Source: Patescibacteria group bacterium (GTDB lineage Bacteria > Patescibacteriota > Patescibacteriia > JACQRZ01). Taken from it: a stretch of DNA of 64,000 bases. Positions 1-54,863 of the stretch are shown one piece after another. The stretch is taken from NCBI GenBank assembly GCA_038065255.1, contig JBBTRI010000006.1, positions 73,240 through 137,239 on the forward strand. Direction: 5' to 3'. The stretch's first letter is position 1, and every line of letters starts with the position of its first letter. A program made the translations under genes and the position numbers. The notes beneath the pieces were generated by a model. It was not told where the DNA came from. It saw only the letters and a list, made by a program, of their open reading frames with translations, and did not search any database.

Positions 1-1
1 G

Positions 2-3000: not shown

Positions 3001-3041
3001 TTGCTATGCTTAAATAGCGATTTTATTATTTTTTATCAGAT

Positions 3042-3647: not shown

Positions 3648-3652
3648 TATGT

Positions 3653-3676
3653 AAAAAAACCTCTCTAGATGAGAGG
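3653..3676 (-). terminator. Rho-independent terminator for minus-strand transcript (hairpin CCTCTC-tagat-GAGAGG followed by U7 on minus strand)
   Basis: 6-bp GC-rich stem 3660-3665/3671-3676 with A-run 3653-3659 on + strand (U-run in minus-strand RNA); overlaps stop of 3665..4123 ORF. Confidence 0.45.
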
Positions 3677-4123: not shown

Positions 4124-4204
4124 TTTTTGTAAAGATGCACCCCGCGCATAAGCGCTGTTTTTTTATTTGACTGCAGCATGAGTTTTTTATAGAGTAGAGG
4201 TACT

Positions 4205-6639: not shown

Positions 6640-6649
6640 TCAACATACT

Positions 6650-7912: not shown

Positions 7913-7990
7913 AAGAAGGAGCCAGATTGAATGTGTCAACAGGGGCATCCCTTCCATTTTTTATATCTAATGGTACACTGAAATTATTCT

Positions 7991-37707: not shown

Positions 37708-37758
37708 CTCAAAACTTATCCACATTATGAGTGAATTATTCTTTCGCAAAAGGTGCTA

Positions 37759-37790
37759 AGATATATGCACCTAACTTTTTTAAAAGCTCT
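37759..37790 (+). terminator. Rho-independent terminator (AGGTGC-loop-GCACCT + AACTTTTTT)
   Basis: 6-bp stem with 10-nt AT loop then T-run, ~50 nt after glycosylase stop and directly before giant gene. Confidence 0.5.
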
Positions 37791-37798
37791 CTTTTTCT

Positions 37799-40700
37799 AT
37801 GAAGCACTATTTTAATCGTAGTTTTTCACCTATGAATGTTCGGATAACACTCAAGAAGTTTCTTACGCAAATAACGGCTGTTGCTGTTATTTTTTGGTCT
37901 TTAGGGCCGGCATCGTTTCTGAATCCGCTCTCTGCTGATGCTGCCGTATCGACGCTTACTGCTACAGCCATTGCAAGCAGAAATCAAGTATTAGGCACTT
38001 CTGCTCCGGCAACAGCTGTACTCGGATTGAACGCTGTTCAGAGCGCGGGCGAGCAACTATCACAGGTGGTTGTGTCAATTAATCCCACAGGCACTATTGC
38101 TCCATCGGATTTTGCAGCACTTGCTACGGATGCCACCTCCGGTGTTGCGCTGTACGCCGATAATGCCGGTGGCGGCACTCAAGGAGTATTTGATGCTACT
38201 GACACTGCTGTGCCACTTGCGGCTGCGCCCTCTTTTAATACTAATAGCCAATTGGTACGTTTGACACCAACCGCATTTTCTGCGACAGCTTCTACCGATA
38301 ATTCCTATGCATTGACAGATGGCGATGTTGTTTTTACTCGGACATCCACCGAACAGAGTTATGCATGGCACGTAGTAAAGGTTGGCAATGGCGGGACGGG
38401 CGGCATGACAAATCAAGCGGTTCGTTTTGAAAATACGGCAACCCTCCCTCTGATCGTTAATAGCGGAGTCCTTTCGAAATTTACTCCGGAAGCAACAGGG
38501 AACTTCACGATCAATGGTACGGCGAATACAACAGTATTTTCAAGCGGAGCAACTCCAGCCCTGTCAACCGGTGATATTGTCCTCTATTCAGGCGGTACGA
38601 CACTTTCCCGCTGGGGCATGGTGAGTGGTGCGTTTACAGCTACTAATGCTCCTGTTGACGGACAAAATTTGGCGAATGAGACCTATCGCATGAGTCGTGC
38701 TGCAGGCGTTACCGGCAGCTACTCAGTTGGGCCAAATGGAGCTGTTACGGTAACCGGCGCATTGAATACCGCACCTCTAACCGCTGGCGACATGGTGCTC
38801 TACCGAGATACGGCAACAACAAGCCAGGCGCAATGGGGTGTTGTGACAAATGCAACCCTTACGAGCGGCATCTTTGCAATAGATGGCGTACCCTTGGCGC
38901 CAGGGACAACAGCAACGCCAAAAGTCTATCAGATCACCAAGTTGAATGCCTACGTTAATGCAACAAAACTTTTAACAACAAATGCAGATACAAATGTAAC
39001 TGCAGGTACGGTTGCCTATACGCTTCTTACGTCAAATACCGACTTTAATGGTGCTGCCGTTGCGCGAAATACTGCCAACTGGCACGTTGTAACGACAGCC
39101 GGCAATACAGTAAACGGCGATGCAAATCTTCGATTGAAATTTAATAGCAGCACTTCTGTTCCGACATTTGGAAATCCCGCTCCGTTGCGCGTTACTTTGG
39201 CGGCAAATGCGCTTCAGGCGATACCGGCAAATGATACGGATGCAGACAAGGTGGGACCAGACTTTTTTGTGGTGGTAAAGGGCGCAGCAACACCAGTGGC
39301 AAATAATGGGTTTACTGCTTCGATTTCTTCAACCTATTTTAGCACCGCGATAGCCGCTATTCCGGCAGTGGTTACTCCAACCTATACATTCTCACCCACG
39401 CCTGTTACCACTTCGGCTCAAGCCGCCCAGCAACTAACTTCAAACACAACACTGTTACCTGCAAGCGAAACATTCTATGCGTTAAAACTCAACCTTTCCC
39501 AATCGAATCAACCCAATGTTCGTGCAATGCGCGTGGTGGTCAATCCGTCGGGGGCGGGGTCTATCAATGACTTGGCGCCAATTACTGATGATGCAACATC
39601 CGGCATTACCCTTCTTAAAGATGATAAATCAAACGGCATGGGAAGAGGTGCCCCGGATGCCACAGATACTTTTGTCGGCAATACATTTGATCTTGGCGGA
39701 CGTTCACAATTCAACAGCACTCAATTGGTCAAAGTAACTCCAAGCTTAACAGCGACTGACAATGGCAATGCTGCCGAGGGGATGCTTGCTGTTGTTGTTG
39801 GCGATGCGGTATTTGCGCGAGTTGGTGCCGGTTCGTATATGTGGCATATGGTGACAACTGCCGGTAATCTGTCTTCCGATGCTACTACCGAAGGCACGGC
39901 TGGTCTTGACGGTTTAAGTGCGGCAAATTCTCTTGTTGCCGCAGGCAGTCAAATGAATAAACTCAATCCCCAAAACGGTACGGGAACTCTTACGGTCGGT
40001 GGTGAGGTGAATCTTACAACGCTTAATTTTGCAGCAAATGATATCATTTTTTATCAGGGAGGTATGGGTGCTCCAAAGTGGGATATTGTTACCTCGGCAA
40101 CCGCGGCAGATATTGTAACGCTTGGCACTCCCCTCCAAAATGGAAACTATCGGGTAAGTAAGTTTACACCGGACGCAAATCGCACCGCCTATGGCATCGG
40201 CGATATTGTACTGTACCAGAACAATTCAACATTTGCCGGCGATACAAAATTCGCAATCATTACCGGTTTTGATCGCGATAATGCCGATGCGGTTATTGGC
40301 TATACGCTTTCTACCGGTGAGACTGTGCCACTTGCACGCCTTATCAAATTCACCGGCTTTGGCCAAGTAAGTAAGGATGTTGGTGCGACTGATTATGCAT
40401 TGATCGACGGTGATTTGGTTTTGGGTATGCCAACACTCAATCCTATGACATCAACAACCGATTGGCATGTTGTCACAACACCAAATGGCGGTGCGCTTGG
40501 CATGAACAATGCCATCCGCCTCAATGATATTGGCGCAGGGGAACCTCGCTTTAATGGCACTGTTGTTATGTTGACCCCGGGAGCTGTGAGTGCGGTATTA
40601 CCGGATGATGCAGGCAACAACGCGCAATCAGATTATTTCATCGGTGTTCGAACGTCGCGCATGGCGGCAAATGGCAATGCATTTACTGTTAGCATTCCTT

Positions 40701-43700
40701 CCGACTCGCTTGTTCTTAATCACTCCACACTTGGCACAACAACGCCACTTGCTACTCTTGCAACGTCTGTGGTGTTTACTGTTTCGACAACATCGTCGTT
40801 GACCACGAATGCTGCTGCAAATATTGCGGGTGGTCCTGCAACGATCAATGTCTCAAGCAATCCAACGGCAGTTTTTGGCTTGAATACTGTTTCCACCGGC
40901 GGCGAACTGGTCAGAAAAGTAGGTGTCACGGTCAATCCTGGCACCGGATTTATCATGAGCGAACTCAATGCACTGGGTACCAATGCGCAGTCCGGTATTG
41001 CTTTGTATGAAGATAATAAAGTTTCCGGCTCGAGCTTTGGTACGTTTAATGCCACTGATGATGCCGTAGTGGCACTTTCGTCAATTACATCCGTTCAGCA
41101 GGGTCCCCGCCTTACCACATTAGCCCCATCATCTCAAGCACTTGCAACAGCTGCAATGACGCTTACCGCAGGCGATGCTCTTTTTACCCACATCACCGGT
41201 AATGGCGCACCGACCAATACATATGGCTGGCACATGGTAACTACAAGCGGCACGGCAGCTACCGCACCTTCCGGAGACGGCGCTCTACGCCTCGACGGCG
41301 CAGGAGCGGCGCCAACGTTTGTCGGCGGTGCCCATGTATCGCGATTGAGTGCGAGAACAACCGGTTCCTATGTCATTAACGGCAGAACCAATACGATTCC
41401 TTCCGCATTGAAACTCGGAGATATTATCCTCTATCAGACAGGAACAACAGCAGCGCGTTGGGGTGTTGTATCTCAGAATTTTGATGCCGGTAATGCAGTC
41501 GTAGATGGCGTACAGTTGGCAAGCGGAACGTATCGCATCGGCAAATTCTCACCGCAATTTTCCCAAAGTACCGCACGCATTGGTTTTCAGCAAGGCAGCC
41601 AATACACGTCATTCTCAACTATTAATTGGACACAGATGCAGGCAGGCGATCTTGTGTTGTATCAAACAGGAACAGAGCCAGCGAAGTGGGGCATTGTCAC
41701 CAATGCGTCCACAACCGGAGGCACCTTTGCTATCAATGGCGCTCCGCTTACGGTGGGAAATGGCTACAACAAGACCTATCGGTTCTCGAAACTTGATTCC
41801 ACATTAACGCAAGCAGCTTTGGCATTTAGTGATGGTACGCAGACAACTGCAGGAACCCTCACCTTTGCGCTTGCAACATCGAATGCGCAAAGTCCTACAG
41901 CATTTGACTGGCATGCCATCACAACTGCCGGAGCTATCAATGGTTCAGCAATTCGTTTCGATGGCAATGGCGCCGCCGCCCCTCTCTATGGTACGAGGGT
42001 TACTATGATTCCGACTGAAGCAACCGCTCCATTTTTCCCAACTGATAACAATGTCAATAATGCAGGCAGCGATTTCTATGTTGTGGCGCGCACTTCCTCA
42101 ACGGCAGTGGCAAACGATAGCTTTTCTCTCACTATAGCCCCGGGAGATGTGGGTACCACGCTACATGAGCCGTTGGCAACACCCACACCGCAGACAAGCC
42201 CTGTATACACCGTATCTTCAGCGCCGGTAGCACCCCCGGCAGCGGTAGCGGCGACAGCAGCTATTCCCGTAGCGGATTTCCCTGTCGTTTTGAAAGGCAC
42301 CAGTGCATACTTGCCACTGTTTCGTGTTCGTTTTGGAACGAATGAGAATACCAAAAACTTTACCTCGGTAAAAGTACAACTCTCACCGCTTGGGGGTACG
42401 CCGACATGGACAACTGCGGCTATTACATCTTCGGATTTGGCTGATTTGGCAACCGATCCTTCCAGTGGCATTACTCTTTGGAAAGATGAAGGCGATTTGA
42501 ACTTCGATACCAATACTCCCGTTGCATTGGCTGCGAGCCCTTCCTATGCTGCTTCTGATCTGGCAACTGCAGGAGCTCGATCATTCACATTGACGCTTGC
42601 AACACCTCAAGCAATTGTATCCGGAGACGCATACTTTATTGCAGTAAGGACAAAAGCAGCTCCGCAAAATGGAAACACGTTTTCTGCCTTTCTATTACCC
42701 GCTGGTATTACTACAAGCGCCACATCTCCGACATTGAGCACAACGGTTCGTCGCGATGCAGTCATAGATAGCACAGTGCCCACCATACAATTAATCGTCG
42801 GTCAACCGGGCACAAATTCACTGGAAGTCACTTTTAGCGAATCAGTTCAAAAAGTGAATAATGGCCCGCTTTCCTTTGTAAGTTCGTCAGATCCGTTTAC
42901 CTTTGTCGACGGAGGCGGTACTGCTCAACAAATCACCAGTATTGAGCGTCGCTCAGATACCGTTTATACACTCACGATGAACGGCAATCTTACCGATGAA
43001 GATTTTGACGGCAGCCCGGCAACATTAGCCGCTACAGCAAATAAAATTTCAGATTTTGCGGGTAATGTCATGGGTACTACGGCATCGAATCTTGCCAATA
43101 CCATGCGAATCACAACTTCTACATTGCCAAATACAGCGGCGGGACAAGCGTATGGACCCGTGACGCTTCAGGCAACCGGAGGTACTCAACCGTACGGCTG
43201 GTCTCCTTTGGGAAGTGCTGATGCAACAACTCTTACAAACCTAGGGCTTACTCTTACGGCAAATACCGGTATTATTTCCGGTACGGTGCCGGCGCAGGCA
43301 TCAGGTTCGAATACCATTACCATTAAACTCCGCGATAAGGCATTTACGGCAACGGTTCTCACGGGCGCAGCAGGAGCAAATCCGTGGACATACCAACGAG
43401 GCGGTTATGTGCCGGCCGTGGGTGACGTTGTGTTTTATCGTAATGTTACCGATGCTCCAACGGCCATGAACTGGGGTATTGTGACAACTGCACCCACAGA
43501 TGCTACACGTACAAATCAAAACACCTTCCGTCTTAATGGCGCGCTCCTCCTTGCCCAAAAAACCTATCAGATGACGCAATTTAGAGGAGGTTCATCTCCT
43601 GAAACAAGTGCGATTGCAGCAAATGGTAATTTCGTCCAAGGACTTAACTTGCGTATTGGCGATCTGGTATTCTATCCAACCAATGCAGCCACAACAACGT

Positions 43701-46700
43701 ATGATTGGGGTATGGTATCAATTGCGGAAAATATTACCGCAAATAATCCGGCAACAATACTGCGTGTGAATGGCAGTGCATTGCCTGCGTATTCAGCAAC
43801 AGGACAAGTACATCTTGTTCGAGCAAGTAATCCTGGGTTCTATTCAGATACTGCTCTTGTAAGGGTGAATAACGGAGCAGTATGGACAATTGACGGTGGC
43901 GCATATACTCCATCAAGCGGTCAGCAAGTTATCTATCGAAATGTTACCGATGCCCCAACAGTCATTCTGCATGGGATTATTACTGCTGCTGCCAATACCA
44001 ACCAAGAAAATTTCAGAATCAATGGCCAGACGCTTCTTGCCACCAAGCAATACCAGATATCCAATCTCAGTACATTAAATTTCACTTCGCAATCAATAGT
44101 CGGCACCAACCAGTCAAATTTTGAACTCGTTGAACGTGATGGCGATATTATGTTCTTGCCAACGCAGAGCAATGGCACGGTGTACAATTGGGCGATGGTG
44201 ACCGGAGGCGATGCGACTATTCCTGCAAATACCAACATCACCGGTCTTAAGCTGAACGGCAGCGCGGTGGATATGGCATGGACCAATGAAGCAGGTGGAA
44301 ATCTTATTGCCAATGCATCCCCTCCTGCAACAAGCGTAACGCGAACATTTACGGTCAATACTCCAGGTGCTGGTGGGTTTATCGCAGGCATTGATCGAGT
44401 GGAACCAAATGTTGGTATCGTCAATACAGTGCGGGATGTGACAGTGACCGGCATAAGCACGTCATTTGCCGCAACTAGCAACATAGAATTGCTTGACGGA
44501 TCAAATAATGTCATTTCCACCGAAGGGGCTGCTTCGGCAACCAATATCCAGGTCTCACAAAAGGCATCAACAGGCGCAACCAACCTCTCATTCCGCCTTA
44601 CAATAGGAGCACAAGTACCTCAGGTTTCGTATCAGTTGCGCATCACTACCGGCAATCAGGTTGTATCAGGGCCAAATGCGTTTACGGTCAGTGCCGCAGT
44701 TGTCGGGCTGAACCCCCTATCACCGCCGAATAATGCGACAAATGTTCCAATCCCTCCGCAGTTCTCATTTTCTCCAAGTGCGGATCAGACTGTTCTGAGC
44801 TACCGTCTCATTGTCCATACGCGGAATGACTTTAATGACAGCATATCGGGTGGATATACTCTGTGGGATTATGCCTTCCCGAAGGTTGCTCCAAGCGGCA
44901 TTCCCGGTCATTGTTTTGTCGACCAGTGTTCCGTTCAATACGGGGAGTCGCGTTTCCGCAACATCCAAGCTGCAAATTTCGATCCAAGCAGTGCCAATAC
45001 ACCTTCACGCCCGGCCCCGCTAAGCCCCAATACCGTGTATTATTGGAAAATACTTGCGTATAAAATTGCCCATTCGGACGCAACCATAGGCGCATCGAGT
45101 GAGAATCTTGGCGATACCAACAGAGTGCCGGAATCCAAACCGGACGGCGGTATTGGCAGAGCATTTACGACGACAGCGACCATAGCTGACAATGAAGCTC
45201 CGGATATTCAGTTTGCAGCACCTCAAAAAGCAACCGCATCAGCCGATCTCAACATGTTTGCTCGCGTATTTGATCGTGTTGCCCGTCCCACCGGAACTCC
45301 GGCGCTTACAGCACGAGTCCTCTACTGTAATAACGCAGCAAACTGCACACCGACCACATCAGCAAATGCTACCCATGTTGGTTCGAATTACTTTAAGTTT
45401 ACTATTCCTGCAGCAACAGTTGGTGTAGCAACCACAGTGACGCGATTCTATATCGATGCAAGCGACGGTCCAAACACAACATCAACGGGCACTGCAGCAT
45501 CACCCCTGAGCGTGACTGCCGTTGCAGCCGGATCAGGAGTGATTAGCGGTACTGTGAAAAAAGCGGACGGCACCTGTGATGCGACCATTCGCCAGGCGAC
45601 TCTATTTATGGAAGGAACCGGTTTCAATGCCACAAGTTCCAATGATGCAGCATGTTCATTTGCTTTGAACGGTCTTACTGCAGGAGGTTCTGTGTGGGCT
45701 GTTAAAGAAGGGTTTGAGCCACAGCCATTCACTTTTTCGCTCGGTAAAACCGGTGCTGATATCCGTATGCCCTTTAACCAGGGAGGTGGATTCATTGGCG
45801 GAGGCGGTTCTACGGGCAATCCACGTGTCATGCATCACTTCCCCGGCCCGGACTCTCAGGCTCCATCCACTGCACCAATTGATATCTTCTTTGATCGTGA
45901 GATGGATTTCGGCACTATCAGCAGCACTAATATGACCGTAAATGAAGAATTAAACGGTGTTTTTACTGATATTACCAACCGTGGATCATGGACATATACC
46001 GATGCAGCCGATCCAAACAATTCTCTTGTCACCATGCATCGCGCAAATTGGACGCTTACCGGACAAAACACACTTGGTACGGGTAAGAAAATTGTTGTCG
46101 TACTATCAAGCGCCGTGAAAGCTCAAGGCGTATCCATTGAAACACCTGACAGCCATAGCTTCCAAAGTGTTAAAAAGTTTAGTTTCTTTACGAGTTCGTT
46201 TACCGCCAATCAGTGTGATTTTGCTGCCGGCACGTGCAATGGTACGGCAATTGCTCCCGACCTTATTCCACGCGTGATGAACTTCCCGCTTCCGCCTGAT
46301 ATTTTCAGAGTTCCAACCAACACGCCTCTCAGTGTGAATTTCAGCGTGGATATGAAAGATAACAGCGAAACGTATAACCTCATCAACTCCGTTCGTCTCT
46401 ATCAGATTATTAACGGACAGCCAAGCGATATTACATCAACGGCTATTCAGTCTGTTTCGCTAGACAGTACAAATAAAAAGCGCGCTCTCATCACGCTTAA
46501 AAACACCTTCAATAGCGGCGCTCTCGGTGTAAATACACAGTATGAGGTTAGAGTGCTCGCTGCCGCGACTGCGTTAAGCGGCTCAACAGTGGGACAGGAT
46601 TTCACCTCGCCGCGCTTTACAACCGGTACGGGTACAGATACGGGAGCCCCAACTATTGTCAATCCGGCAGCCGGTGCGCAGATGCAATTCTCGCCGTTCA

Positions 46701-49700
46701 TGCGAAAAATTGTCCTCTCATTTAACAAGCCCCTGCGGCAAGACAGCGTATCATCGAACACCATTAAACTTTTCCAGAGTGGTTCTACGTCTCCGGTAAG
46801 CGGTGTGTCAGTTCAATATGACAATACGTTAAATGTTGAACTTATTCTCTCAAACCCGCTTCTAGAGCAGACAAACTATGAAGTAAGGGCAACGGTAGGA
46901 TCAAGTGGTGTTGTCGGAGGCAATGGAGTGGCGCTCGTCGCAGAATCGCAAGGGGCAACCTATGTTTCACGCCAATTCACAACAACAGTCGTAACGGGAA
47001 CGATTGAAGCAGCTGCTCCTCGTATTGAATTCATGAATGCCGATGACAAAGAAATAGTCATAAAATTCAGCAAACCGATGAATACGGCAACAAGCGGAGA
47101 TGATCTTGCAAAGAGTGTTTTGAATAAGAATAACATTACACTCAAATATGGCGATAGCGAGCCCTTTCCGGGATTTCAGCCGGCCACACAGGGAACGGCA
47201 ATCACTCTTGCCAATGAAGCGAATGCAACCTTAAGCTTCACCTCGAATAATGAACTGAAGATTTCCAATTGGACCTCGGTTGCCGCAGCCACTATCCGCG
47301 ATAAGAAAGTCTATATTTCCTTTGCCACGACAGTGACGGATGTGAGAGATATGGCGATCGACACAAACGATATGGATCCTGACATGGCAGCTAAGTTTGG
47401 CGCGCTAATGGATGGGCAAACGGTATGTATGAAGGGTAATTCTCGTTGTCAGAGAGTTATGAATAATACGTTGACGGGTGGTGCGAATACGATTGGTGAA
47501 TATAAGGTTGATTTGGGTCTGCGCGGCCAGGGCGGACTAACAAGTATGAATATCAATATGGTCGGTAAAGCGATCGGTCATATAGGCCCGCCTGAAGTGA
47601 TAGCTCACAACCAGACCACAGGAGAGTTGAGCGGCTATATCATACGCGTTCCCCTCACTAGACAGATACCTACCGGTGGGGCGGTTCAACTTATCTTTCC
47701 TGAAGGGTTTGATGTGACAGGCGCGAAACAGCGTGCGAATCACCCAACCTGGCGAGATTTCAATCGCGATAATGCAGGGACTATCACATTCAGGTGTGGT
47801 GCGAGTGTTGCAAATACCACAAATTGCGCGGGCGGAGCAAATACGGATGATACGGGCACTGCCCAAGGAGGGCTTGCAGATGACGGTATCGTTGTTGTAA
47901 GTAAAACAACTGTAAAGGCATATTTAAGTGTTGTATTTCCACCGACTAATAGTACAAATCCGATAGATTTTATTGAGTTTGAACTTGAGGGCATTCGAAA
48001 TACTTCCAGCGCCCTAGATCACAGCTCTACAGACAATACTGTGAAAATAACGACACTTGCCGGCGGTGAACTTGAAAGTATCTCGCCAAGTCCGATCATT
48101 ATTCTTAAGCAGGCTGGAGCGCTGCAGATTACCGGAATGATCACCACTCCTGGGAATGCTGCGAATGGCACGGTAACGGTCTATTTGGAATCTGAGCAAG
48201 CCGGATTCAAGTCGGCAACCTCGACAAACTTCAGCGGCACAACCACAGCAACCTTTGCATTTACCGGTGTTCAGGCAAATACGTATTATTATGTTCGACT
48301 TGATCCAAGCGTAACGCTTGGCGGTAATGAATATTCCGGATCAGGGGTTCCACTCTTTGTGAATAACGCAAATGCAACTGCTGATTTACCGATGACCAAT
48401 ACAACGACAGCAGGTACCCTTGTGACGATAACCATTACCGGAGGCCCGGCGAATGAGTTATTGGATATCTTTGCCAACTCCATGCATGGGCAGAGGCGCC
48501 TGAAGCAAATGCAGCTTGGCGGTGATGGTACGAATGGTGCCGGAACACAAATACGGCTTTCGGATGATCAGTGGTTTATTGGTGTCGGACCACGAATTCC
48601 GTTTGGTCAATATTCGGGACCTCCGCCAAAAACGTCTTATCGGCCGCCGGCTCATATCAGTGTTAATGTTGATAGCGCACAGAATCCGGCGTGCAATCGT
48701 GAAGGCGGGGTTCAGAGCTGTACCGTTCCCTTTGCTCTGACGAATGCAACAAAGCAAATTAGAGGCAAGGTTGTTGACCCGAACAATGTAAGTAATGTTA
48801 TGGTTGGCGCGGAAGTAAAGGCATTTTCGCCGAGCGGTGAAGCGCGTGCGACTTCCGGAGCTGATGGATCATTTACATTGGATGTAACACCTGATTCATA
48901 TGACGTTAAAGCCTATGTTTTCGGCATGGAGCCGTCTATCCCGCGCAATGTCAACGTAACATCGGCGGTTACAGATTATCTTGTCATTGACGGCGCAGCG
49001 GCAGTGTCGGCGGTAACAGCTGCTACAACATTCATTCTCAAGCCGATTAAAGCAGGATTCAGCATCCAAGGAAAGATAACCGATTCAACCGGAAGCGTTA
49101 TGAAAGACACGGCTGTGTATGCATATAGAACAGACGGACCGGGGCATGCCAATGGCATGACCAATGCAAGCGGTGTTTATACTATCTATGTAGGTCCCGG
49201 AACATGGAACGTTGGTTCGGTTATCAATGGTTTTGGTAAGGTTCAAGAAATTACGGTTACGGTCACCAATGCGGACAAAACAAATCAGGATCTCTCGGCA
49301 TCGGGCGGTAACCGATCGTACAAAAAAGTATCCGGTCGTATTTATCAAGATACGAATGGGAACTTACAATATGATGCCAATGAAGGCTTGGCAAATACCA
49401 TGGTAAAGATCGTCGGTCCCGGTGGTTATTTCAATCGCGATGCGACCAAGTCTGATGGCACATACACTATTCAGGTTCCGACGGGCAGCGGTTATCGCGT
49501 TAAGGCGTTTTCTCCTGATCTCGGTGGAGAACTGCCACCACTTCCTCTATTCGATGTCAGTGATGATGTTCCGAATAAGGATTTCAGAATTGCAGCACTA
49601 CGTACTATAACATTCGTGTTCGCCGGCGGTACGGTGAGTGATGGGCGTATTGAACTGAAGACAGCGGGTAATATGATCGTGCCGATCCGTATCTTTAATG

Positions 49701-52270
49701 GTACGGTGCCCAAAGCCGCAGTTCCGAATGGGGATTATACTGTTGATGTAATGATGGGGAATGCTTCAGTTTCAGCGTCGAATATTGCCGCTACTGATGG
49801 GAATACCACCTATGTGGTTGCAGGCGGAGTTGGAACGCTTACAGTTACCGGCAATGAGAGTCTGACAATCACCTTACCGGCGCAACGGACAGTCAGTGGT
49901 ACGGTGCGTGATGCAAATAACCAAATTGTCGCCCAAGCCGGTGTGGAGATATTCAATGAGGCAACCCATGTATTCAATACAACATCAACAGCCGCAGATG
50001 GTACCTTTACTGTGCGCGTTCCCAATGTGTTACCAACCGAACCACCCTACATCTTGAATGTGTCAAAGTCGGGGTATCTGAATGCGTTTCAATCGATTGC
50101 CGTTACGGCGGCAATAGCTGATGTCGACCTTATAAATCTTGCATTGAGCATTCAAAAAGCGACACTTTCCATTTCCGGCAGAGTAAGGCTTGGGTCTGAT
50201 AGTGGAGCTAATGCTACAAAAGCAAGTGTATATGCTCGAAGACAAGGCGGTGGATCTGCACGAACAACGGCTGACGATCAAGGCAATTTCATATTGCCTG
50301 TGCAGGCCGGTTCTTGGGATGTTACCGCCAACTATGATGGTTACCAAGAAAAAGGATTTGCCCAAAACCCGGTTGTCGTGACTACTGTTGCAGTTGATGG
50401 AAAAAATATTGCTCTCACTGAAACCATAGCGACAAAGGCGCCGCTTTCGCAGACGGTGTCCTCAACGGTTGGAACAAATGTTGAAGATACCAATACCGGC
50501 ACAAGCTTGATCATCGGTGCAAATGTATTACCGACCAATACTTCAACAAATCTCCAAATTAAAGAAACGACGAACTTCAGCAGTACGGATACGGCAAAAG
50601 TGGTGGGAGGAGCAACGGAAATCACGGCTCAAGATACGAGCGGTTCGCCGGTAACTAAATTAACCGGTGCAGCAACAGTGCAACTGAAGCGCACTAAGGT
50701 GCAGCTTAATGCTTCAGCATCAGCAGCAGACTCATCAATCAATACTAAATCCGAAGTCAACAAGATGAGTATTTCGTTATTTGATGATACGCTCGGCCAA
50801 TGGACGTCATTACCTACGACGATTACATATAGGGATGCGAATAACAATCTTGTTTCAAATCCAAGCGAAGATCTATCTAATGTCGATAATGTGTTGCTTT
50901 CTGCCGAAACAACTCACTTTTCGCTCTATGCTCCGACGGTCAAGACAAATCCAACAGCTCCTTCAGCACCTGCAGGTTTAGCCGTGAGTAGTCCAACAGC
51001 ATCATCACTCACGCTCACATGGACGGCTGTTGCGGGCGCTACAGGGTATTCTGTTTACCGAGGCACATCGGCAAATGGAGAATTCCCACGTATCGGAGCG
51101 GATCCGACAGTTGGAAGCGGCACAACAACCTCATATGTAGATACCGGACTGGCAAATAATACCAGCTACTTCTACAAGATAACCGCGCATAATGCAAATG
51201 GTGAGTCGGAAGCGTCCGCAGCTGTAACCAATACTACAAGCACTGCAACGGCAGCATCTGCCGGATCATCCGGTGGAAGCGGCGGTACGGCAATCGTGGG
51301 TGGCACTGGCGGTAGCGCAACATCGACAACTACCACAGCGGCAGCAAAAGTAATCGTTGAACCGGTGAAGCAAACTCCTGCGCAAGCTGCGCCGCAGGCC
51401 GCTGGAGCAGTTCCAGCGCCTGCCGCACAGGCTCCAGTAGTAGTAGCGCCAAAGCCGGCTCCACAGGCTGCGCCAGTTGCTCAAGCACTCTCTGAAGTAA
51501 AAGCCCTCTCAACAATTACACGATCACTTGCAAAAGGTTCAAAAGGCGCTGATGTGAAGACGCTCCAGCAAGTACTGAAGGCCGAAGGTTTGTATAAGGG
51601 AGCGATCAATGGCGTTGTTGATGCAAAAACTCTCTCTGCCGTGAAGTCCTTCCAAGTTGCGCATAAGATCTCCAAACCGGGCCAGAAAGCATTTGGCAAT
51701 ATCGGTCCCGGAACGAGAGCCGCAGTCAATAAACTTGTTACGCAGGCAGTGAAGGCGCAAAAAGAAGCTATAAAAGCAAAAGCTTCTATACCTGCTCAAT
51801 GGGCTACTCCGGCTACCCCAGCAACTCCCGCTCAAAAACCAGCAAAAGCAAAACCGACCAAAGAAGAACAAGCTGCAATGAAGGCTGCTAAAGAAGCCGA
51901 AAAGAAAGAAGCATTGATGGCTGCAATAGAAAAAGCTTCAGAAGCTCTTGAAGAACGGTATGCTTCCGAAGATGGAGAGTTTGGTCTTATGAAGGGAGCA
52001 AAAACTGCAAAAAGTACGGCAGCAGCACAGAAGAAAGCCGACAAGCATGTAAAGAAACTTACTTCTGTCCTCGAGCCAAAAGCACTTAAGATGGCATTGA
52101 AAGATCTTCTCTTGAATCTTCCTGAGCCAATGAAAAAACTTGGCATGGACAAGTTTGCCCAAGTTCTCACGAAGACACGAAAAGTTCATGGAAATGCTAT
52201 TCCTCAAGATCCGCAAGGGTTTGCGGATTTTGTCCAGGAAGCAATGAATAGTGCAGTAGGAGTCAAGTAA
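37799..52270 (+). CDS. Giant (4823 aa) cell-surface protein: signal/anchor, >12 copies of a novel ~100-aa Thr/Ala/Gly-rich repeat, CarboxypepD_reg-like beta-sandwich repeats, FN3 domain, low-complexity linker, C-terminal peptidoglycan-binding domain and Lys/Ala-rich tail
   Basis: Uninterrupted 14.5 kb ORF; recurring motif GD[IVLM][IV][LF]Y...W[GD][IMV]V[TS] in aa ~180-2100; CarboxypepD_reg-like units (e.g. IRGKVVDPNN...ADGSFTL, VSGRIYQDTNGN...SDGTYTIQV) at ~48.7-50.4 kb; FN3 (PSAPAGLAV...YSVYRG...NTSYFYKITAHNANGES) ~50.95-51.25 kb; PG_binding_1-like (LAKGSKGADVKTLQQVLKAEGLYKGAINGVVDAKTLSAVKSFQ) ~51.52-51.67 kb. Confidence 0.85.
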   Translation: MKHYFNRSFSPMNVRITLKKFLTQITAVAVIFWSLGPASFLNPLSADAAVSTLTATAIASRNQVLGTSAPATAVLGLNAVQSAGEQLSQVVVSINPTGTIAPSDFAALATDATSGVALYADNAGGGTQGVFDATDTAVPLAAAPSFNTNSQLVRLTPTAFSATASTDNSYALTDGDVVFTRTSTEQSYAWHVVKVGNGGTGGMTNQAVRFENTATLPLIVNSGVLSKFTPEATGNFTINGTANTTVFSSGATPALSTGDIVLYSGGTTLSRWGMVSGAFTATNAPVDGQNLANETYRMSRAAGVTGSYSVGPNGAVTVTGALNTAPLTAGDMVLYRDTATTSQAQWGVVTNATLTSGIFAIDGVPLAPGTTATPKVYQITKLNAYVNATKLLTTNADTNVTAGTVAYTLLTSNTDFNGAAVARNTANWHVVTTAGNTVNGDANLRLKFNSSTSVPTFGNPAPLRVTLAANALQAIPANDTDADKVGPDFFVVVKGAATPVANNGFTASISSTYFSTAIAAIPAVVTPTYTFSPTPVTTSAQAAQQLTSNTTLLPASETFYALKLNLSQSNQPNVRAMRVVVNPSGAGSINDLAPITDDATSGITLLKDDKSNGMGRGAPDATDTFVGNTFDLGGRSQFNSTQLVKVTPSLTATDNGNAAEGMLAVVVGDAVFARVGAGSYMWHMVTTAGNLSSDATTEGTAGLDGLSAANSLVAAGSQMNKLNPQNGTGTLTVGGEVNLTTLNFAANDIIFYQGGMGAPKWDIVTSATAADIVTLGTPLQNGNYRVSKFTPDANRTAYGIGDIVLYQNNSTFAGDTKFAIITGFDRDNADAVIGYTLSTGETVPLARLIKFTGFGQVSKDVGATDYALIDGDLVLGMPTLNPMTSTTDWHVVTTPNGGALGMNNAIRLNDIGAGEPRFNGTVVMLTPGAVSAVLPDDAGNNAQSDYFIGVRTSRMAANGNAFTVSIPSDSLVLNHSTLGTTTPLATLATSVVFTVSTTSSLTTNAAANIAGGPATINVSSNPTAVFGLNTVSTGGELVRKVGVTVNPGTGFIMSELNALGTNAQSGIALYEDNKVSGSSFGTFNATDDAVVALSSITSVQQGPRLTTLAPSSQALATAAMTLTAGDALFTHITGNGAPTNTYGWHMVTTSGTAATAPSGDGALRLDGAGAAPTFVGGAHVSRLSARTTGSYVINGRTNTIPSALKLGDIILYQTGTTAARWGVVSQNFDAGNAVVDGVQLASGTYRIGKFSPQFSQSTARIGFQQGSQYTSFSTINWTQMQAGDLVLYQTGTEPAKWGIVTNASTTGGTFAINGAPLTVGNGYNKTYRFSKLDSTLTQAALAFSDGTQTTAGTLTFALATSNAQSPTAFDWHAITTAGAINGSAIRFDGNGAAAPLYGTRVTMIPTEATAPFFPTDNNVNNAGSDFYVVARTSSTAVANDSFSLTIAPGDVGTTLHEPLATPTPQTSPVYTVSSAPVAPPAAVAATAAIPVADFPVVLKGTSAYLPLFRVRFGTNENTKNFTSVKVQLSPLGGTPTWTTAAITSSDLADLATDPSSGITLWKDEGDLNFDTNTPVALAASPSYAASDLATAGARSFTLTLATPQAIVSGDAYFIAVRTKAAPQNGNTFSAFLLPAGITTSATSPTLSTTVRRDAVIDSTVPTIQLIVGQPGTNSLEVTFSESVQKVNNGPLSFVSSSDPFTFVDGGGTAQQITSIERRSDTVYTLTMNGNLTDEDFDGSPATLAATANKISDFAGNVMGTTASNLANTMRITTSTLPNTAAGQAYGPVTLQATGGTQPYGWSPLGSADATTLTNLGLTLTANTGIISGTVPAQASGSNTITIKLRDKAFTATVLTGAAGANPWTYQRGGYVPAVGDVVFYRNVTDAPTAMNWGIVTTAPTDATRTNQNTFRLNGALLLAQKTYQMTQFRGGSSPETSAIAANGNFVQGLNLRIGDLVFYPTNAATTTYDWGMVSIAENITANNPATILRVNGSALPAYSATGQVHLVRASNPGFYSDTALVRVNNGAVWTIDGGAYTPSSGQQVIYRNVTDAPTVILHGIITAAANTNQENFRINGQTLLATKQYQISNLSTLNFTSQSIVGTNQSNFELVERDGDIMFLPTQSNGTVYNWAMVTGGDATIPANTNITGLKLNGSAVDMAWTNEAGGNLIANASPPATSVTRTFTVNTPGAGGFIAGIDRVEPNVGIVNTVRDVTVTGISTSFAATSNIELLDGSNNVISTEGAASATNIQVSQKASTGATNLSFRLTIGAQVPQVSYQLRITTGNQVVSGPNAFTVSAAVVGLNPLSPPNNATNVPIPPQFSFSPSADQTVLSYRLIVHTRNDFNDSISGGYTLWDYAFPKVAPSGIPGHCFVDQCSVQYGESRFRNIQAANFDPSSANTPSRPAPLSPNTVYYWKILAYKIAHSDATIGASSENLGDTNRVPESKPDGGIGRAFTTTATIADNEAPDIQFAAPQKATASADLNMFARVFDRVARPTGTPALTARVLYCNNAANCTPTTSANATHVGSNYFKFTIPAATVGVATTVTRFYIDASDGPNTTSTGTAASPLSVTAVAAGSGVISGTVKKADGTCDATIRQATLFMEGTGFNATSSNDAACSFALNGLTAGGSVWAVKEGFEPQPFTFSLGKTGADIRMPFNQGGGFIGGGGSTGNPRVMHHFPGPDSQAPSTAPIDIFFDREMDFGTISSTNMTVNEELNGVFTDITNRGSWTYTDAADPNNSLVTMHRANWTLTGQNTLGTGKKIVVVLSSAVKAQGVSIETPDSHSFQSVKKFSFFTSSFTANQCDFAAGTCNGTAIAPDLIPRVMNFPLPPDIFRVPTNTPLSVNFSVDMKDNSETYNLINSVRLYQIINGQPSDITSTAIQSVSLDSTNKKRALITLKNTFNSGALGVNTQYEVRVLAAATALSGSTVGQDFTSPRFTTGTGTDTGAPTIVNPAAGAQMQFSPFMRKIVLSFNKPLRQDSVSSNTIKLFQSGSTSPVSGVSVQYDNTLNVELILSNPLLEQTNYEVRATVGSSGVVGGNGVALVAESQGATYVSRQFTTTVVTGTIEAAAPRIEFMNADDKEIVIKFSKPMNTATSGDDLAKSVLNKNNITLKYGDSEPFPGFQPATQGTAITLANEANATLSFTSNNELKISNWTSVAAATIRDKKVYISFATTVTDVRDMAIDTNDMDPDMAAKFGALMDGQTVCMKGNSRCQRVMNNTLTGGANTIGEYKVDLGLRGQGGLTSMNINMVGKAIGHIGPPEVIAHNQTTGELSGYIIRVPLTRQIPTGGAVQLIFPEGFDVTGAKQRANHPTWRDFNRDNAGTITFRCGASVANTTNCAGGANTDDTGTAQGGLADDGIVVVSKTTVKAYLSVVFPPTNSTNPIDFIEFELEGIRNTSSALDHSSTDNTVKITTLAGGELESISPSPIIILKQAGALQITGMITTPGNAANGTVTVYLESEQAGFKSATSTNFSGTTTATFAFTGVQANTYYYVRLDPSVTLGGNEYSGSGVPLFVNNANATADLPMTNTTTAGTLVTITITGGPANELLDIFANSMHGQRRLKQMQLGGDGTNGAGTQIRLSDDQWFIGVGPRIPFGQYSGPPPKTSYRPPAHISVNVDSAQNPACNREGGVQSCTVPFALTNATKQIRGKVVDPNNVSNVMVGAEVKAFSPSGEARATSGADGSFTLDVTPDSYDVKAYVFGMEPSIPRNVNVTSAVTDYLVIDGAAAVSAVTAATTFILKPIKAGFSIQGKITDSTGSVMKDTAVYAYRTDGPGHANGMTNASGVYTIYVGPGTWNVGSVINGFGKVQEITVTVTNADKTNQDLSASGGNRSYKKVSGRIYQDTNGNLQYDANEGLANTMVKIVGPGGYFNRDATKSDGTYTIQVPTGSGYRVKAFSPDLGGELPPLPLFDVSDDVPNKDFRIAALRTITFVFAGGTVSDGRIELKTAGNMIVPIRIFNGTVPKAAVPNGDYTVDVMMGNASVSASNIAATDGNTTYVVAGGVGTLTVTGNESLTITLPAQRTVSGTVRDANNQIVAQAGVEIFNEATHVFNTTSTAADGTFTVRVPNVLPTEPPYILNVSKSGYLNAFQSIAVTAAIADVDLINLALSIQKATLSISGRVRLGSDSGANATKASVYARRQGGGSARTTADDQGNFILPVQAGSWDVTANYDGYQEKGFAQNPVVVTTVAVDGKNIALTETIATKAPLSQTVSSTVGTNVEDTNTGTSLIIGANVLPTNTSTNLQIKETTNFSSTDTAKVVGGATEITAQDTSGSPVTKLTGAATVQLKRTKVQLNASASAADSSINTKSEVNKMSISLFDDTLGQWTSLPTTITYRDANNNLVSNPSEDLSNVDNVLLSAETTHFSLYAPTVKTNPTAPSAPAGLAVSSPTASSLTLTWTAVAGATGYSVYRGTSANGEFPRIGADPTVGSGTTTSYVDTGLANNTSYFYKITAHNANGESEASAAVTNTTSTATAASAGSSGGSGGTAIVGGTGGSATSTTTTAAAKVIVEPVKQTPAQAAPQAAGAVPAPAAQAPVVVAPKPAPQAAPVAQALSEVKALSTITRSLAKGSKGADVKTLQQVLKAEGLYKGAINGVVDAKTLSAVKSFQVAHKISKPGQKAFGNIGPGTRAAVNKLVTQAVKAQKEAIKAKASIPAQWATPATPATPAQKPAKAKPTKEEQAAMKAAKEAEKKEALMAAIEKASEALEERYASEDGEFGLMKGAKTAKSTAAAQKKADKHVKKLTSVLEPKALKMALKDLLLNLPEPMKKLGMDKFAQVLTKTRKVHGNAIPQDPQGFADFVQEAMNSAVGVK
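38300..44300 (+). repeat. Intragenic tandem protein-coding repeats within giant gene (GD-VLY...WGVVT unit, divergent copies)
   Basis: At least 13 recognisable copies of the motif in the translated product; copies are diverged at nucleotide level (not a simple satellite). Confidence 0.6.
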
Positions 52271-52370: not shown

Positions 52371-53792
52371 ATGACTTCACGTCTCATGCTCGTAGTAGCG
52401 TTGTTCGGTATTTTTGCAAGTGCTACAGTTACGTTTGCACAACTTCAACAACCTCAGGGAGGGCAACTTAATCAGCAACAGGGCGGACAACAGGGCCAAT
52501 ATCAGGGGCAAATGCCACCCAATCAACAACAGGGCATGATGGGACAGTACGGAGGCCAACAGGGTCAACAAGGACAGCAATACGGTGGGCAGCAGCAGGG
52601 TGGTCAGCAGGGACAGATGCCACCCGGAGGATTTGATCCAAATATGGATCCTTCCCGAAAAGGGCAGTACCAAGGGCAAATGCCTCCAGGAGGACAGGAT
52701 CCTAGAATGATGCAGGGAGGTGGACAAGATATGCAAGGAGGACAGTACGGAGGCAAACAGGGACAGCAAGGGCAGCAGTACGGTGGACAGCAACAGGGCG
52801 GTGGGCAGGGACAGATGCCGCCGGGAGGTCCGGGAATGATGCAGGGACCCGGTAAGGAATTTTTCTCTCGGATGGTCACAGAAATGAAAAGCAACATGAA
52901 GCCATTTGAAATGATGGTAAAGAATTTTGACAAGCAGATTACAAAAGTCCAGACATCGGTAAAAAAATGCGGCATTTCACCAAATTTTGAAGAAATGAAG
53001 ACTGCTGTTACTAATGCCAAAGATACTGTTGCTAAAGTAAAAAATTTAGATCCAAAGGCAGAAGATCTTGATTTCTCTCCTGAAGAAATTGGTGAAACTG
53101 CGCAGACTGTTTCCGAAAACCAGCGCCAACTCATGCAGTATGACCAATTCTGTCGTGGAATGACTCAGCGCGAAAAAGACCTCAAAGGCATCACTGGAAG
53201 GCTTGCAAAGATTGAGAGGAATATTCAAAAGGGTAAATTAGATTTGACTGATTCACTTAATGAGCAGAGAGCAGATCTAGCAACGCTACAAACATTGCTT
53301 AAAGACGCAAAGGATCAGGCATCGCAGGATATAGAAAAGGCGATGGATACTATTGATGATTTTGAGGATAAACGGAATGACGTATTTGACCGCGAACGTG
53401 CATTACAGATGGCTGCAAACTTTTCGAGGGAATTAAAAAATCTTGATCGTGATGCAAAACGCCTTGCAACAGATGTGAAAAATGAAAAAAGACGCGCTTT
53501 AAAAAAGAAACTTCCAAGCGAAGATTTAAGCGATTCGTATACCAAGTTTAACGATGACTATACCACGCTTAAGGGGCTTGCAGGCAAGAAGAATGTTGAT
53601 CCTGAAGATCTCATAGCTGCTATGGAGGATGTATTCGATGCGCGGCGCGATATAGATGAGGCGCTCAATCAGTTGCGTGAGGGCGGTTCGGGGAAAACGG
53701 AAGACGAATTTGCTTTGCCGCAGGGGTGGGATGATATAGCAAAATATTCCCATCAGGGCAGCCAGCAAGACCAGATGATGCAGGATCAATAA
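52371..53792 (+). CDS. Secreted protein with N-terminal Gln/Gly-rich low-complexity repeats and C-terminal coiled-coil/helical domain
   Basis: Signal peptide MTSRLMLVVALFGIFASATVTFAQ; two ~60-aa tandem repeats of QGQYQGQMPP..GGQQGQQGQQYGGQQQGG; charged helical K/E/D-rich C-terminal 300 aa. Confidence 0.7.
   Translation: MTSRLMLVVALFGIFASATVTFAQLQQPQGGQLNQQQGGQQGQYQGQMPPNQQQGMMGQYGGQQGQQGQQYGGQQQGGQQGQMPPGGFDPNMDPSRKGQYQGQMPPGGQDPRMMQGGGQDMQGGQYGGKQGQQGQQYGGQQQGGGQGQMPPGGPGMMQGPGKEFFSRMVTEMKSNMKPFEMMVKNFDKQITKVQTSVKKCGISPNFEEMKTAVTNAKDTVAKVKNLDPKAEDLDFSPEEIGETAQTVSENQRQLMQYDQFCRGMTQREKDLKGITGRLAKIERNIQKGKLDLTDSLNEQRADLATLQTLLKDAKDQASQDIEKAMDTIDDFEDKRNDVFDRERALQMAANFSRELKNLDRDAKRLATDVKNEKRRALKKKLPSEDLSDSYTKFNDDYTTLKGLAGKKNVDPEDLIAAMEDVFDARRDIDEALNQLREGGSGKTEDEFALPQGWDDIAKYSHQGSQQDQMMQDQ
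52470..52860 (+). repeat. Tandem repeat encoding QG-rich low-complexity region
   Basis: Repeated cagggacagcaagg/cagcagggtgg units; explains spurious antisense ORFs 52377..52793 and 52604..53134. Confidence 0.6.
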
Positions 53793-53810: not shown

Positions 53811-54863
53811 CTAAAAATACGCATATTGCCGCGCATAGCCGCGGCCTTTGTCGTATACTTCTTTGGTAATCAGCTTATCCCGATAAAGCGTTTCGAGGGC
53901 GCGTTCCATTGTTACCATGCCTTCTTCAGAACTTGTTTGAAGGACGGTATCAAGCTGTTCAAAATTTCCCGTGCGGATAATGTTTGCTACAGCGCTATTG
54001 TTGATAAGAATCTCCCGTGCGGCGATGCGGCCTTCAGGTATACAAGGTACAAGTTCTTGAAAGACGACTGCTCGTAGGTTTTCTGCGAGTTGGATTTTGA
54101 TCTGGCGCTGTTCATGCGGCTCAAAAATATCCACAATACGAAGCATCGTCGCTGGAGCGCTGGATGTATGGAGCGTTGAGAACACCAAGTGGCCGGTCTC
54201 AGCGATACGCAGTGTTTCCTGGATGGTTTCTTTGTCGCGCATTTCACCAACCATGATGATATTGGGGTCTTGGCGGAATACCGTGCGTAACGCCATACCG
54301 AAATTGGGGGAGTCAATGCCGACTTCACGCTGTTCAACGACGGATTTTTTGTGTTCAAAAACGTATTCAATCGGATCTTCAACAGTAATGATTTTGCAGT
54401 GCCGATCGATGTTGATGCGGTCGAGCATTGCCGCAAGTGTTGTGGACTTTCCGGATCCGGTAGGGCCGCAGACTAAAATAAGCCCGCTATTGAGCTGAGT
54501 AAGACTTTCTTCAAATTTGCCGAGACGTATTTTATCGAATGAAGGAATTTCCAATTTGATAATGCGTGCCGTAAGGGCAAGATGTTTGCGTTCAAAATGG
54601 ACATTCACGCGAATGCGCTGGTTCTTGCCGAAATCATGGGCAAAATCAGCATCAAATACTTCATTGAGTTGCGCCTTGGCGCGCGGTGTCAAAATCTCAT
54701 CAGTGAGTTCTTGAATGTCGTTATCGGTGAGTTTATAGTCATCAACGTCTTCAAGTCGACCGTGGATGCGCATTTGCGCGGGCTTGTCATAGATAAGATG
54801 GATGTCCGACGCTTCTTTCGCGTAGGCATCCTGGTACATTTCATAGAATGTTTTCATACACAC
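53811..54863 (-). CDS. pilT: Type IV pilus retraction ATPase PilT (twitching motility protein)
   Basis: Walker A GPTGSGKST, Asp box, Walker B IIMVGEMRD, His box HLVFSTLHT and AIRE(I) PilT motif; 350 aa. Confidence 0.85.
   Translation of the reverse strand: MCMKTFYEMYQDAYAKEASDIHLIYDKPAQMRIHGRLEDVDDYKLTDNDIQELTDEILTPRAKAQLNEVFDADFAHDFGKNQRIRVNVHFERKHLALTARIIKLEIPSFDKIRLGKFEESLTQLNSGLILVCGPTGSGKSTTLAAMLDRINIDRHCKIITVEDPIEYVFEHKKSVVEQREVGIDSPNFGMALRTVFRQDPNIIMVGEMRDKETIQETLRIAETGHLVFSTLHTSSAPATMLRIVDIFEPHEQRQIKIQLAENLRAVVFQELVPCIPEGRIAAREILINNSAVANIIRTGNFEQLDTVLQTSSEEGMVTMERALETLYRDKLITKEVYDKGRGYARQYAYF

Follow-up and report, generated by a model that had tools for sequence, protein, structure and literature searches.

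An intact gene of 14.5 kb

The stretch of DNA analysed here, hereafter the window, comprises 64,000 nucleotides (nt) from a metagenome-assembled genome (MAG) of a Patescibacteria group bacterium (assembly GCA_038065255.1, contig JBBTRI010000006.1, positions 73,240 to 137,239 of the forward strand). Our subject is a single gene of 14.5 kb within it, which encodes a giant protein of 4,823 amino acids (aa). Giant surface proteins from bacteria in the candidate phyla radiation (CPR) form a known kind, and this particular protein has already been deposited; what is new are two domain families that Pfam, NCBIfam and the sequences of the PDB lack, a fixed cassette of four predicted small barrels built from one of them, and the insertion of this cassette into loops of other domains.

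The original prediction, drawn up from the letters of this DNA, had proposed a giant secreted multidomain protein encoded by one open reading frame (ORF), and both parts of that description stand for this Patescibacteria MAG. The frame has zero internal stops over 4,823 codons and is the sole long ORF in its interval (Table 1). The corresponding NCBI entry, MEK7648741.1, is named 'MAG: carboxypeptidase regulatory-like domain-containing protein [Patescibacteria group bacterium]' and starts 11 codons downstream. An identical 4,823-aa product is encoded on three public contigs (e.g., CAYIQZ010000002.1 of GCA_964365725.1), and an orthologue from an unrelated assembly (P0001, 4,962 aa) shares 60% identity and is collinear end to end (aa 14-4821 versus 1-4870). 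Tandem DNA repeats, sought within the gene, were not found, the only direct repeat being imperfect and 32 nt long. Given this absence of DNA repeats, the three identical contigs and the collinear orthologue, a frameshift, collapse or expansion artefact is very unlikely, and assembly collapse or expansion was rejected.

A terminator had been predicted on either side of the gene. The downstream hairpin is indeed strong and is likely an intrinsic terminator with a weak U tract, whereas the upstream one, with a 6-bp stem and a 10-nt loop followed by U6, received no call from a terminator consensus scan and could be no more than a marginal terminator of the HhH-GPD gene before it. It is plausible that the giant gene is a monocistronic unit. 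The G+C fraction within the gene is 0.47-0.50 (positions 38000-46000 of the window) versus 0.43-0.47 in the flanks, and GC skew is negative over 38-46 kb despite the gene sharing its strand with its neighbours; both shifts probably stem from the Thr/Ala/Gly/Asn-rich composition of the N-terminal part, or head, rather than from a foreign origin.

Table 1. Coordinates of the giant gene, the parts of its product and the flanking hairpins (HMM, hidden Markov model; Ig, immunoglobulin)
Feature	Position in window (nt)	Strand	Basis or remark
Whole ORF	37799..52270	+	4823 aa + stop codon; NCBI start at M12 gives 4812 aa
Upstream hairpin	37751..37782	+	AGGTGC-N10-GCACCT then T6; -9.2 kcal/mol, z -1.8
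Sec-type signal peptide, aa 1-47	37799..37939	+	Sequence pattern, AxA-type site kept in homologues; cleavage presumed
Super-module A, aa 48-535	37940..39403	+	Base beta-sandwich split by array A (aa 163-472, nt 38285-39214)
Super-module B, aa 536-1000	39404..40798	+	Base beta-sandwich split by array B (aa 656-937, nt 39764-40609)
Super-module C, aa 1001-1478	40799..42232	+	Base beta-sandwich split by array C (aa 1113-1416, nt 41135-42046)
Base domain D, uninterrupted, aa 1489-1657	42263..42769	+	HMM match and beta-sandwich model
Big_5-like region (by eye) and He_PIG-like Ig region (aa 1777-1852)	42794..43384	+	Motifs read; sub-threshold He_PIG
Array E, four units, aa 1863-2185, no surrounding base domain	43385..44353	+	BLAST, unit HMM, all-beta model
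Central stalk, aa 2186-3650	44354..48748	+	Two Big_5 (aa 2838-2942, 2947-3039), beta-rich stretches
CarboxypepD_reg (transthyretin-like) region, aa 3651-4190	48749..50368	+	Copies at ~aa 3653-3725, 4031-4105, 4124-4189
Domain without family match, aa 4191-4385, ending ...THFSLYAP	50369..50953	+	Sequence
Fibronectin type III (FN3), aa 4389-4477	50963..51229	+	Pfam; PDB FN3 matches, E 8e-7
Gly/Ser/Thr- then Pro/Ala/Gln-rich low-complexity linker, aa 4478-4570	51230..51508	+	Sequence
PG_binding_1, aa 4571-4650, net charge +10	51509..51748	+	Pfam
Lys/Ala/Glu-rich C-terminal tail, aa 4651-4823, net charge +11	51749..52267	+	No Pfam match
Stem-loop 3' of stop codon	52293..52321	+	ACAGGGGAT-N7-ATCCCCTGT, then TTGTGG; -21.3 kcal/mol, z -4.9

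The domain order originally read from the translation, namely CarboxypepD_reg, FN3, linker, PG_binding_1 and Lys-rich tail, is correct, and the suggested Cna-B-like units found no supporting match. In a Pfam scan, CarboxypepD_reg (PF13620) scores 99.5 bits in 4 stretches (cut-off 32.3; 65.2, 50.3 and 33.4 bits for individual pieces), with a further stretch within aa 3509-3868 and, at 3755-3822, a DUF1416-like match below threshold, and fn3 (PF00041) scores 33.9 bits (cut-off 25). Two Big_5 (PF13205) matches of 36.0 and 35.4 bits (cut-off 23.6) were seen on scanning the protein in pieces; the same kind of scan of aa 1479-1838 yielded no Big_5 match at E<=0.1, and He_PIG (PF05345) remains a resemblance only, below threshold at aa 1777-1852 (16.4 bits versus 24). 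Weak Gmad2-like and DUF4369-like Ig matches in the central stalk also fall below thresholds. The THFSLYAP-type ending of the domain without family match recurs (HFSDFAP) at the same position in the Harrisonbacteria and Doudnabacteria relatives and in P0010. All recognised domains are of extracellular type. Beyond the Pfam matches, the NCBIfam scan returned nothing specific, a search of PDB sequences matched FN3 chains alone, and none of these three scans revealed a catalytic domain anywhere in the 4,823 aa. For the first ~2,200 residues, no library scanned gave a match above its curated cut-off.

Two domain families in the N-terminal part

Internal repeats in this unmatched part were found by segment-against-segment BLAST; self-BLAST of the whole protein gave the identity match alone. 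The segments resolve three super-modules of ~470 aa with mutual identities of 29-37%, and a region of ~320 aa (1863-2185) that is internally duplicated. At a finer scale, the protein contains 16 copies of a small unit, neighbouring starts being 54-87 aa apart, with the pattern GDxV[LF]Y, 10-14 residues, W[GH]xV[TS], a strand like F/LxIxG or RLDG and often YRxSKF. These units form four arrays of exactly four, three of them within loops of a second domain, which we call the base domain, and one (E) outside any.

The original prediction had announced more than 12 copies of an undescribed repeat of about 100 aa. A novel repeat family is present, with 16 copies, but the units are shorter than proposed, do not form one tandem run, and are grouped in fours; this grouping had been missed, as had the nesting of three of the groups within a second new domain of ~155 aa. 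'Undescribed' remains apt for both domains, if not for the protein, which is deposited and has about 130 related clusters. To avoid circularity, the repeat was tested with an HMM built from 113 units of other proteins, the giant protein and its close orthologues being left out. With this HMM, 15 of the 16 units score 8.6-55.9 bits, compared with a maximum of 6.6 bits among 200 composition-preserving shuffles; the family is genuine and exceeds what chance would give. In the one remaining unit, the degenerate B3, F replaces W.

A model of array E, computed from 19 aligned arrays, is all-beta and of moderate confidence (pLDDT 67.4, pTM 0.63); the prediction for each unit is a small, roughly five-stranded beta-barrel. 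A Foldseek search with this model returned nothing at E<0.08, its top non-significant matches being triple-Tudor proteins, and hence detected no solved counterpart of the four-barrel assembly. At the sequence level, the unit has no match above the curated Pfam cut-offs and none in NCBIfam, and a 60-sequence unit profile found nothing significant among PDB sequences. Its best hit there, to a laccase (E 0.022, 11.9 bits for a single stretch), led us to consider and reject kinship with cupredoxins or laccases. The Pfam scan of the 19 arrays gave only sub-threshold matches, to SH3_2 once (E 0.0087), SH3_9 once (E 0.022) and NlpC/P60 in 3 of the 19; the last was dismissed as an identity for the units because it reflects a GDxVxF...HVxI-like strand pattern alone. 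Described families of SH3 type (SH3b, SH3_3, GW and similar) gave no significant profile match either. The unit is thus best described as a predicted SH3/Tudor-like small barrel of an undescribed family. With SH3-, Tudor-like and translation-protein small barrels, including the tandem Tudor domains of Spindlin and SETDB1, it would share its predicted small barrel of about five strands; it differs from them in lacking a significant sequence or structure match, in its extracellular setting, in its fixed number of four and in its insertion into loops.

The base domain of ~155 aa occurs in uninterrupted form 72 times in the set of proteins retrieved with the super-modules (see below). An HMM of this form matches a single piece in D and two halves, one on either side of the array, in each of A-C, and modules A-C are therefore base domains with a four-unit array in a loop. 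Modelling of base domain D from 41 aligned sequences produced a confident beta-sandwich (pLDDT 85.5, pTM 0.84), whose nearest folds are the N-terminal sandwiches of sialidases (PDB 8gn6, 6mnj), at 10-13% sequence identity. Further fold matches include accessory sandwiches of beta-galactosidase and GH123 enzymes, Ig-like domains of Gram-positive adhesins and pilins, cohesin and Calx-beta. The predicted likeness to carbohydrate-binding modules (CBM) and Ig-like modules is one of fold, not of family membership: the base domain has no Pfam match and, compared with the sandwiches of these bacteroidete sialidases, it belongs to a protein without a sialidase catalytic domain and bears an insertion of 270-310 aa in a sandwich loop.

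The most strongly conserved long portion of the protein is this head. Identity to P0001 is 68-71% in modules A-C and 64-66% in base domain D and array E, compared with 54-58% in the stalk and the CarboxypepD_reg region (69% in the block aa 2481-2837), 72% in FN3, 41% in the linker, 53% in PG_binding_1 and 34% in the tail, which is partly kept (...LPEPMKKLG...). Conservation of the head points to a constrained function. Since modules A, B and C each pair with their own counterpart in P0001, the triplication is old and its copies have been kept separately. Many adhesins, by contrast, have near-identical repeats that turn over fast. Giant adhesins of Gram-positive cocci (Ebh, SasC, Bap and those of SdrD/FnBPA type) resemble the protein in size class and beta-sandwich stalk; however, they combine an LPXTG/sortase or C-terminal membrane anchor with many near-identical tandem repeats, and the giant protein has neither, its repeats being 29-37% identical and each retained one-to-one in the orthologue.

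Termini, relatives and surroundings

The N-terminus shows the signal-peptide pattern originally predicted, with a basic n-region (KK), an h-region of ~11 strongly hydrophobic residues (ITAVAVIFWSL), a G/P break and the sequence SADA↓AVS, that is, a Sec signal with a signal peptidase I site and small residues at -1 and -3. Every homologue inspected has an AxA-type (small-x-small) site after the core. No N-terminal 19-residue window reaches a Kyte-Doolittle mean of 1.6, so a cleaved signal peptide accounts for the N-terminus better than a stable anchor would, and no membrane-anchor-like 19-residue window was seen elsewhere in the protein. Cleavage after SADA and before A would give a mature protein beginning with AVSTLTATAIASR. 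We also observed that the core motif W[ST]LGP is kept across the family, in the giant protein and in P0001-P0015 (e.g., IFWSLGPA, VLWTLGPA, MLWSLGPA), which is unusual for a plain Sec signal and may point to sorting or processing by a step of its own. All 14 Cys residues lie in the central stalk, in 7 closely spaced pairs of which 5 are kept in the orthologue, and this pairing fits an extracytoplasmic protein. Secretion is well supported by these sequence features.

At the other end, PG_binding_1 (PF01471) reaches 30.4 bits when the whole protein is scanned and 38.5 bits when the scan is limited to the C-terminal 253 aa (cut-off 23). It occupies the same C-terminal position in five family members, among them P0001, the Candidatus Uhrbacteria protein P0002, P0010 and, twice (85 bits), the Harrisonbacteria relative described below. 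Distant proteins that share the base domain carry other C-terminal modules, namely dockerin (41.9 bits), CFI-box-CTERM (an NCBI name) and a sub-threshold module like those of the type IX secretion system (T9SS). In the giant protein, PG_binding_1 and the 173-aa tail are net positive, whereas the rest is net negative. There is no C-terminal LPXTG, the only LPxT[GAS] being internal (aa 1776), and no C-terminal hydrophobic segment; the protein has no RTX motif (GGxGxD), and Pfam and NCBIfam scans at E<=1 gave neither SLH nor any other surface-layer (S-layer) family. Anchoring by LPXTG/sortase, in the RTX/LapA manner or through SLH was rejected on these absences, and the secretion signal is of Sec type instead of type I. 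Non-covalent tethering of the C-terminus in the wall is plausible, and the likely orientation of the molecule follows from comparative position, charge and signal-peptide features. An N-terminal signal combined with a C-terminal wall module and no LPXTG is shared with the non-covalently held wall proteins of Gram-positive bacteria (with C-terminal PG_binding_1, LysM, GW or SH3b). PF01471, however, is known mostly from wall hydrolases and not from giant fibrils; the giant protein adds a Lys-rich tail of ~170 aa without known family, and its binding to peptidoglycan is a prediction only.

Relatives were sought by an exhaustive HMMER profile search with the alignment of modules A, B and C against 1.84 billion representative proteins; 130 clusters passed E<=1e-3, and 18 of these also passed E<=1e-30. 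The small unit is present in 32 of the matched proteins in addition to the giant protein, and most of the others share the array-flanking base domain alone. The family is rare, and patchy even within Patescibacteria. All named relatives with arrays come from this group. A metagenome scan with the module alignment found one locus, 75% identical. The base domain also occurs in P0011, which NCBI assigns to Omnitrophota. Across the family, 27 of 44 arrays have exactly four units and none has more, shorter ones being found mostly in truncated fragments.

In a 2,330-aa relative from a Candidatus Harrisonbacteria MAG (L001:9044-16036, JAHFLF010000004.1), the base domain is uninterrupted and the array lies between two partial Big_5 matches; the protein also has five CarboxypepD_reg, FN3 and two PG_binding_1. 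Because array and base domain are uncoupled there, the array behaves as a cassette able to sit in different host sandwiches, and both the count of four and the occurrence inside Big_5 in another lineage fit an independent functional cassette. The Harrisonbacteria gene is preceded by two genes for He_PIG/Big_9 surface proteins (L001:4499-6358 and 7329-8663), which suggests a surface-protein cluster. Separately, the P0025 cluster (787 aa) and similar arrays (GDIVFC...) have a conserved Cys after GDxVF and consist of WH-type units only. One member of this cluster, P0144, lies on a contig of 1.71 Mb, and since this is long for a CPR genome, the four-unit cassette may not be confined to Patescibacteria.

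The neighbours of the giant gene are housekeeping genes (HtrA-like protease, RsmE, HhH-GPD glycosylase, PheS and PheT); they are absent from the Harrisonbacteria locus, which has different genes, and on these two grounds an operon with the neighbouring genes was rejected. No transporter or glycosidase genes were seen adjoining the giant gene, and no further copies of the two new domains were found in the window beyond the giant protein itself. Directly downstream (52371-53792, +) lies a gene for a 473-aa secreted protein in which an N-terminal signal-like segment is followed by ~150 aa of Gln/Gly/Met/Pro-rich low complexity and a long charged coiled-coil-like region; Pfam gives no match for it. 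It may represent a further envelope protein or a partner; the gene has no counterpart beside the Harrisonbacteria homologue. A T2SSE-family (PilB/PilT-like) ATPase (148 bits) is encoded at 53811-54863 (-), ~1.5 kb downstream of the giant gene, and it too has no counterpart at the Harrisonbacteria locus. The other device by which Patescibacteria have been proposed to attach is the type IV pilus.

Farther away, an 889-aa protein (331-3000, -) with an N-terminal hydrophobic segment and one FN3 (47.1 bits), without the two new domains, is probably another surface protein. Three unusual genes of nucleotide metabolism or repair (4205-5977, 6242-7912 and 8992-10728, all +) comprise a 590-aa ThyX-like protein, much longer than usual, an apparent fusion of thymidylate kinase and HAD hydrolase, and a PolX-type polymerase with HHH_8 and DNA_pol_B_thumb. 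They are followed by two adjacent paralogues (10794-12395, + and 12492-14075, +) of 533 and 527 aa, which have no Pfam match and are 32% identical over about 500 aa (E 5e-90).

A candidate adhesin and competing explanations

Patescibacteria carry many surface proteins (PMC5220378), and Southlakia epibionticum, the only epibiont that is genetically tractable, requires adhesins to grow epibiotically (PMC10633639). The giant protein has in common with these its phylum-level group, secretion, very large size and sandwiches of Ig-like, FN3 or lectin type, and they have likewise been proposed to act at the host interface. They differ in having concanavalin/lectin, pectin lyase, beta-propeller and VCBS domains and sortase motifs; four-barrel arrays or the base domain were not found in them, and our protein is known from its sequence alone. 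A second comparison is offered by Omnitrophota, whose giant proteins have been implicated in adhesion to prey and in degradation of walls (bioRxiv 10.1101/2023.11.21.568195): ultra-small host-dependent bacteria, a giant extracellular protein, CBM-like repeats, a proposed role in adhesion and, through P0011, the base domain. Yet the Omnitrophota proteins span 10-85 thousand aa and include enzymatic domains and SecA-like parts, whereas ours has 4.8 thousand aa, no detected catalytic domain and an origin in a monoderm lineage.

With modest confidence, we favour the view that a monoderm Patescibacteria cell exports the protein through Sec as a fibril, which is held non-covalently by its C-terminus and acts as an adhesin through an N-terminal head. 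After removal of the signal peptide at the SADA↓A site, PG_binding_1 and the Lys-rich tail would hold the protein in the cell's own peptidoglycan, as their domain identity, position and charge suggest. The linker of ~93 aa, FN3, CarboxypepD_reg, Big_5 and other Ig-like sandwiches, whose identities are established, would serve as a long stalk, presenting the N-terminal ~2,140 aa as a distal head of four CBM/Ig-like base sandwiches and four arrays of SH3/Tudor-like barrels. The ligand of this head would lie on another cell or surface and would most likely be a glycopolymer of the host cell envelope. This candidate role in host adhesion is drawn by analogy from the surface proteins of Patescibacteria, the adhesins of the cultured epibiont and the giant proteins of Omnitrophota. 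Several observations weigh against the view as a whole. The PG_binding_1 match spans only profile positions 2-43 of 57, and such a domain could equally bind the peptidoglycan of another cell; the neighbourhood of the gene offers no functional hint; and a structural role, for instance in a lattice, would likewise agree with so highly conserved a head.

PF01471 is best known from wall-acting enzymes that bind their substrate peptidoglycan, and a weak SleB-like NCBIfam match is in keeping with this association. One alternative is the reversed orientation, in which an uncleaved N-terminal signal-anchor would sit in the cell's own membrane, and PG_binding_1 together with the basic tail would form a tip that binds the peptidoglycan or anionic wall of the host cell. 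Other small bacteria with a predatory or episymbiotic life have giant proteins for which binding to the prey wall has been proposed (bioRxiv 10.1101/2023.11.21.568195), and the W[ST]LGP motif of the h-region is unusually well conserved for a signal peptide. We nevertheless consider this arrangement unlikely: the hydrophobic core is short, at ~11 residues, and no 19-residue window near it attains the hydropathy stated above, an AxA-type site with a preceding G/P follows the core in every homologue, and distant homologues bear C-terminal anchoring or sorting modules. Moreover, linker and tail are the least conserved parts of the protein and the head the most, the opposite of what a specific C-terminal tip would predict.

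The same wall-binding C-terminus and long chain of beta-sandwiches could also belong to a structural component of the envelope, an S-layer-like or fibrillar coat that is tethered to peptidoglycan and spaces an outer layer without binding a partner cell. The strongly conserved head with its three individually kept modules would suit lattice contacts, and the gene is single-copy among housekeeping genes. The absence of SLH and other S-layer families from the Pfam and NCBIfam results, a length of 4,823 aa, far above the typical size of S-layer subunits, and a family that is rare (130 clusters in 1.84 billion proteins) and patchy in Patescibacteria, unlike a core envelope protein, make such a coat improbable. 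If, on the other hand, the CBM-like base domains served nutrient capture, the protein would be a secreted or surface scaffold that binds polysaccharides and takes no part in cell-cell attachment. The fold matches to accessory sandwiches of sialidase, beta-galactosidase and GH123 enzymes and to cohesin agree with this proposal, as does the dockerin at the end of some distant base-domain proteins; with no catalytic domain detected in 4,823 aa and no adjoining transporter or glycosidase genes, we regard it as very unlikely.

Within the adhesin interpretation, the arrays invite a more specific and more doubtful suggestion. Each four-pack may be a self-contained ligand-recognition cassette displayed in loops, which Patescibacteria would use for a specific polymer of the host envelope, the three copies and the fourth array affording multivalent or multi-specific recognition. 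We put this forward tentatively; if true, the cassette would provide a sequence handle from which to predict the hosts that uncultured CPR bacteria can use.

Hardly any Patescibacteria have been cultured, and little is known of the ways in which they find their hosts and stay attached to them. The gene described here devotes 14.5 kb of a presumably small genome to a protein in which a recognisable wall-anchoring end is paired with a strongly conserved head of two uncurated domain types. Its database name, 'carboxypeptidase regulatory-like domain-containing protein', covers about a tenth of its length, and the domain definitions improve on that name. Even if adhesion proves wrong, the boundaries, alignments and models obtained suffice to define two new domain families. 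Should the head indeed bind host envelope polymers, the four-barrel array and the base domain would become searchable markers of attachment across the radiation and defined targets for structural and binding studies. The giant protein thus emerges, by analogy with the systems compared above, as a concrete, testable candidate for host recognition.

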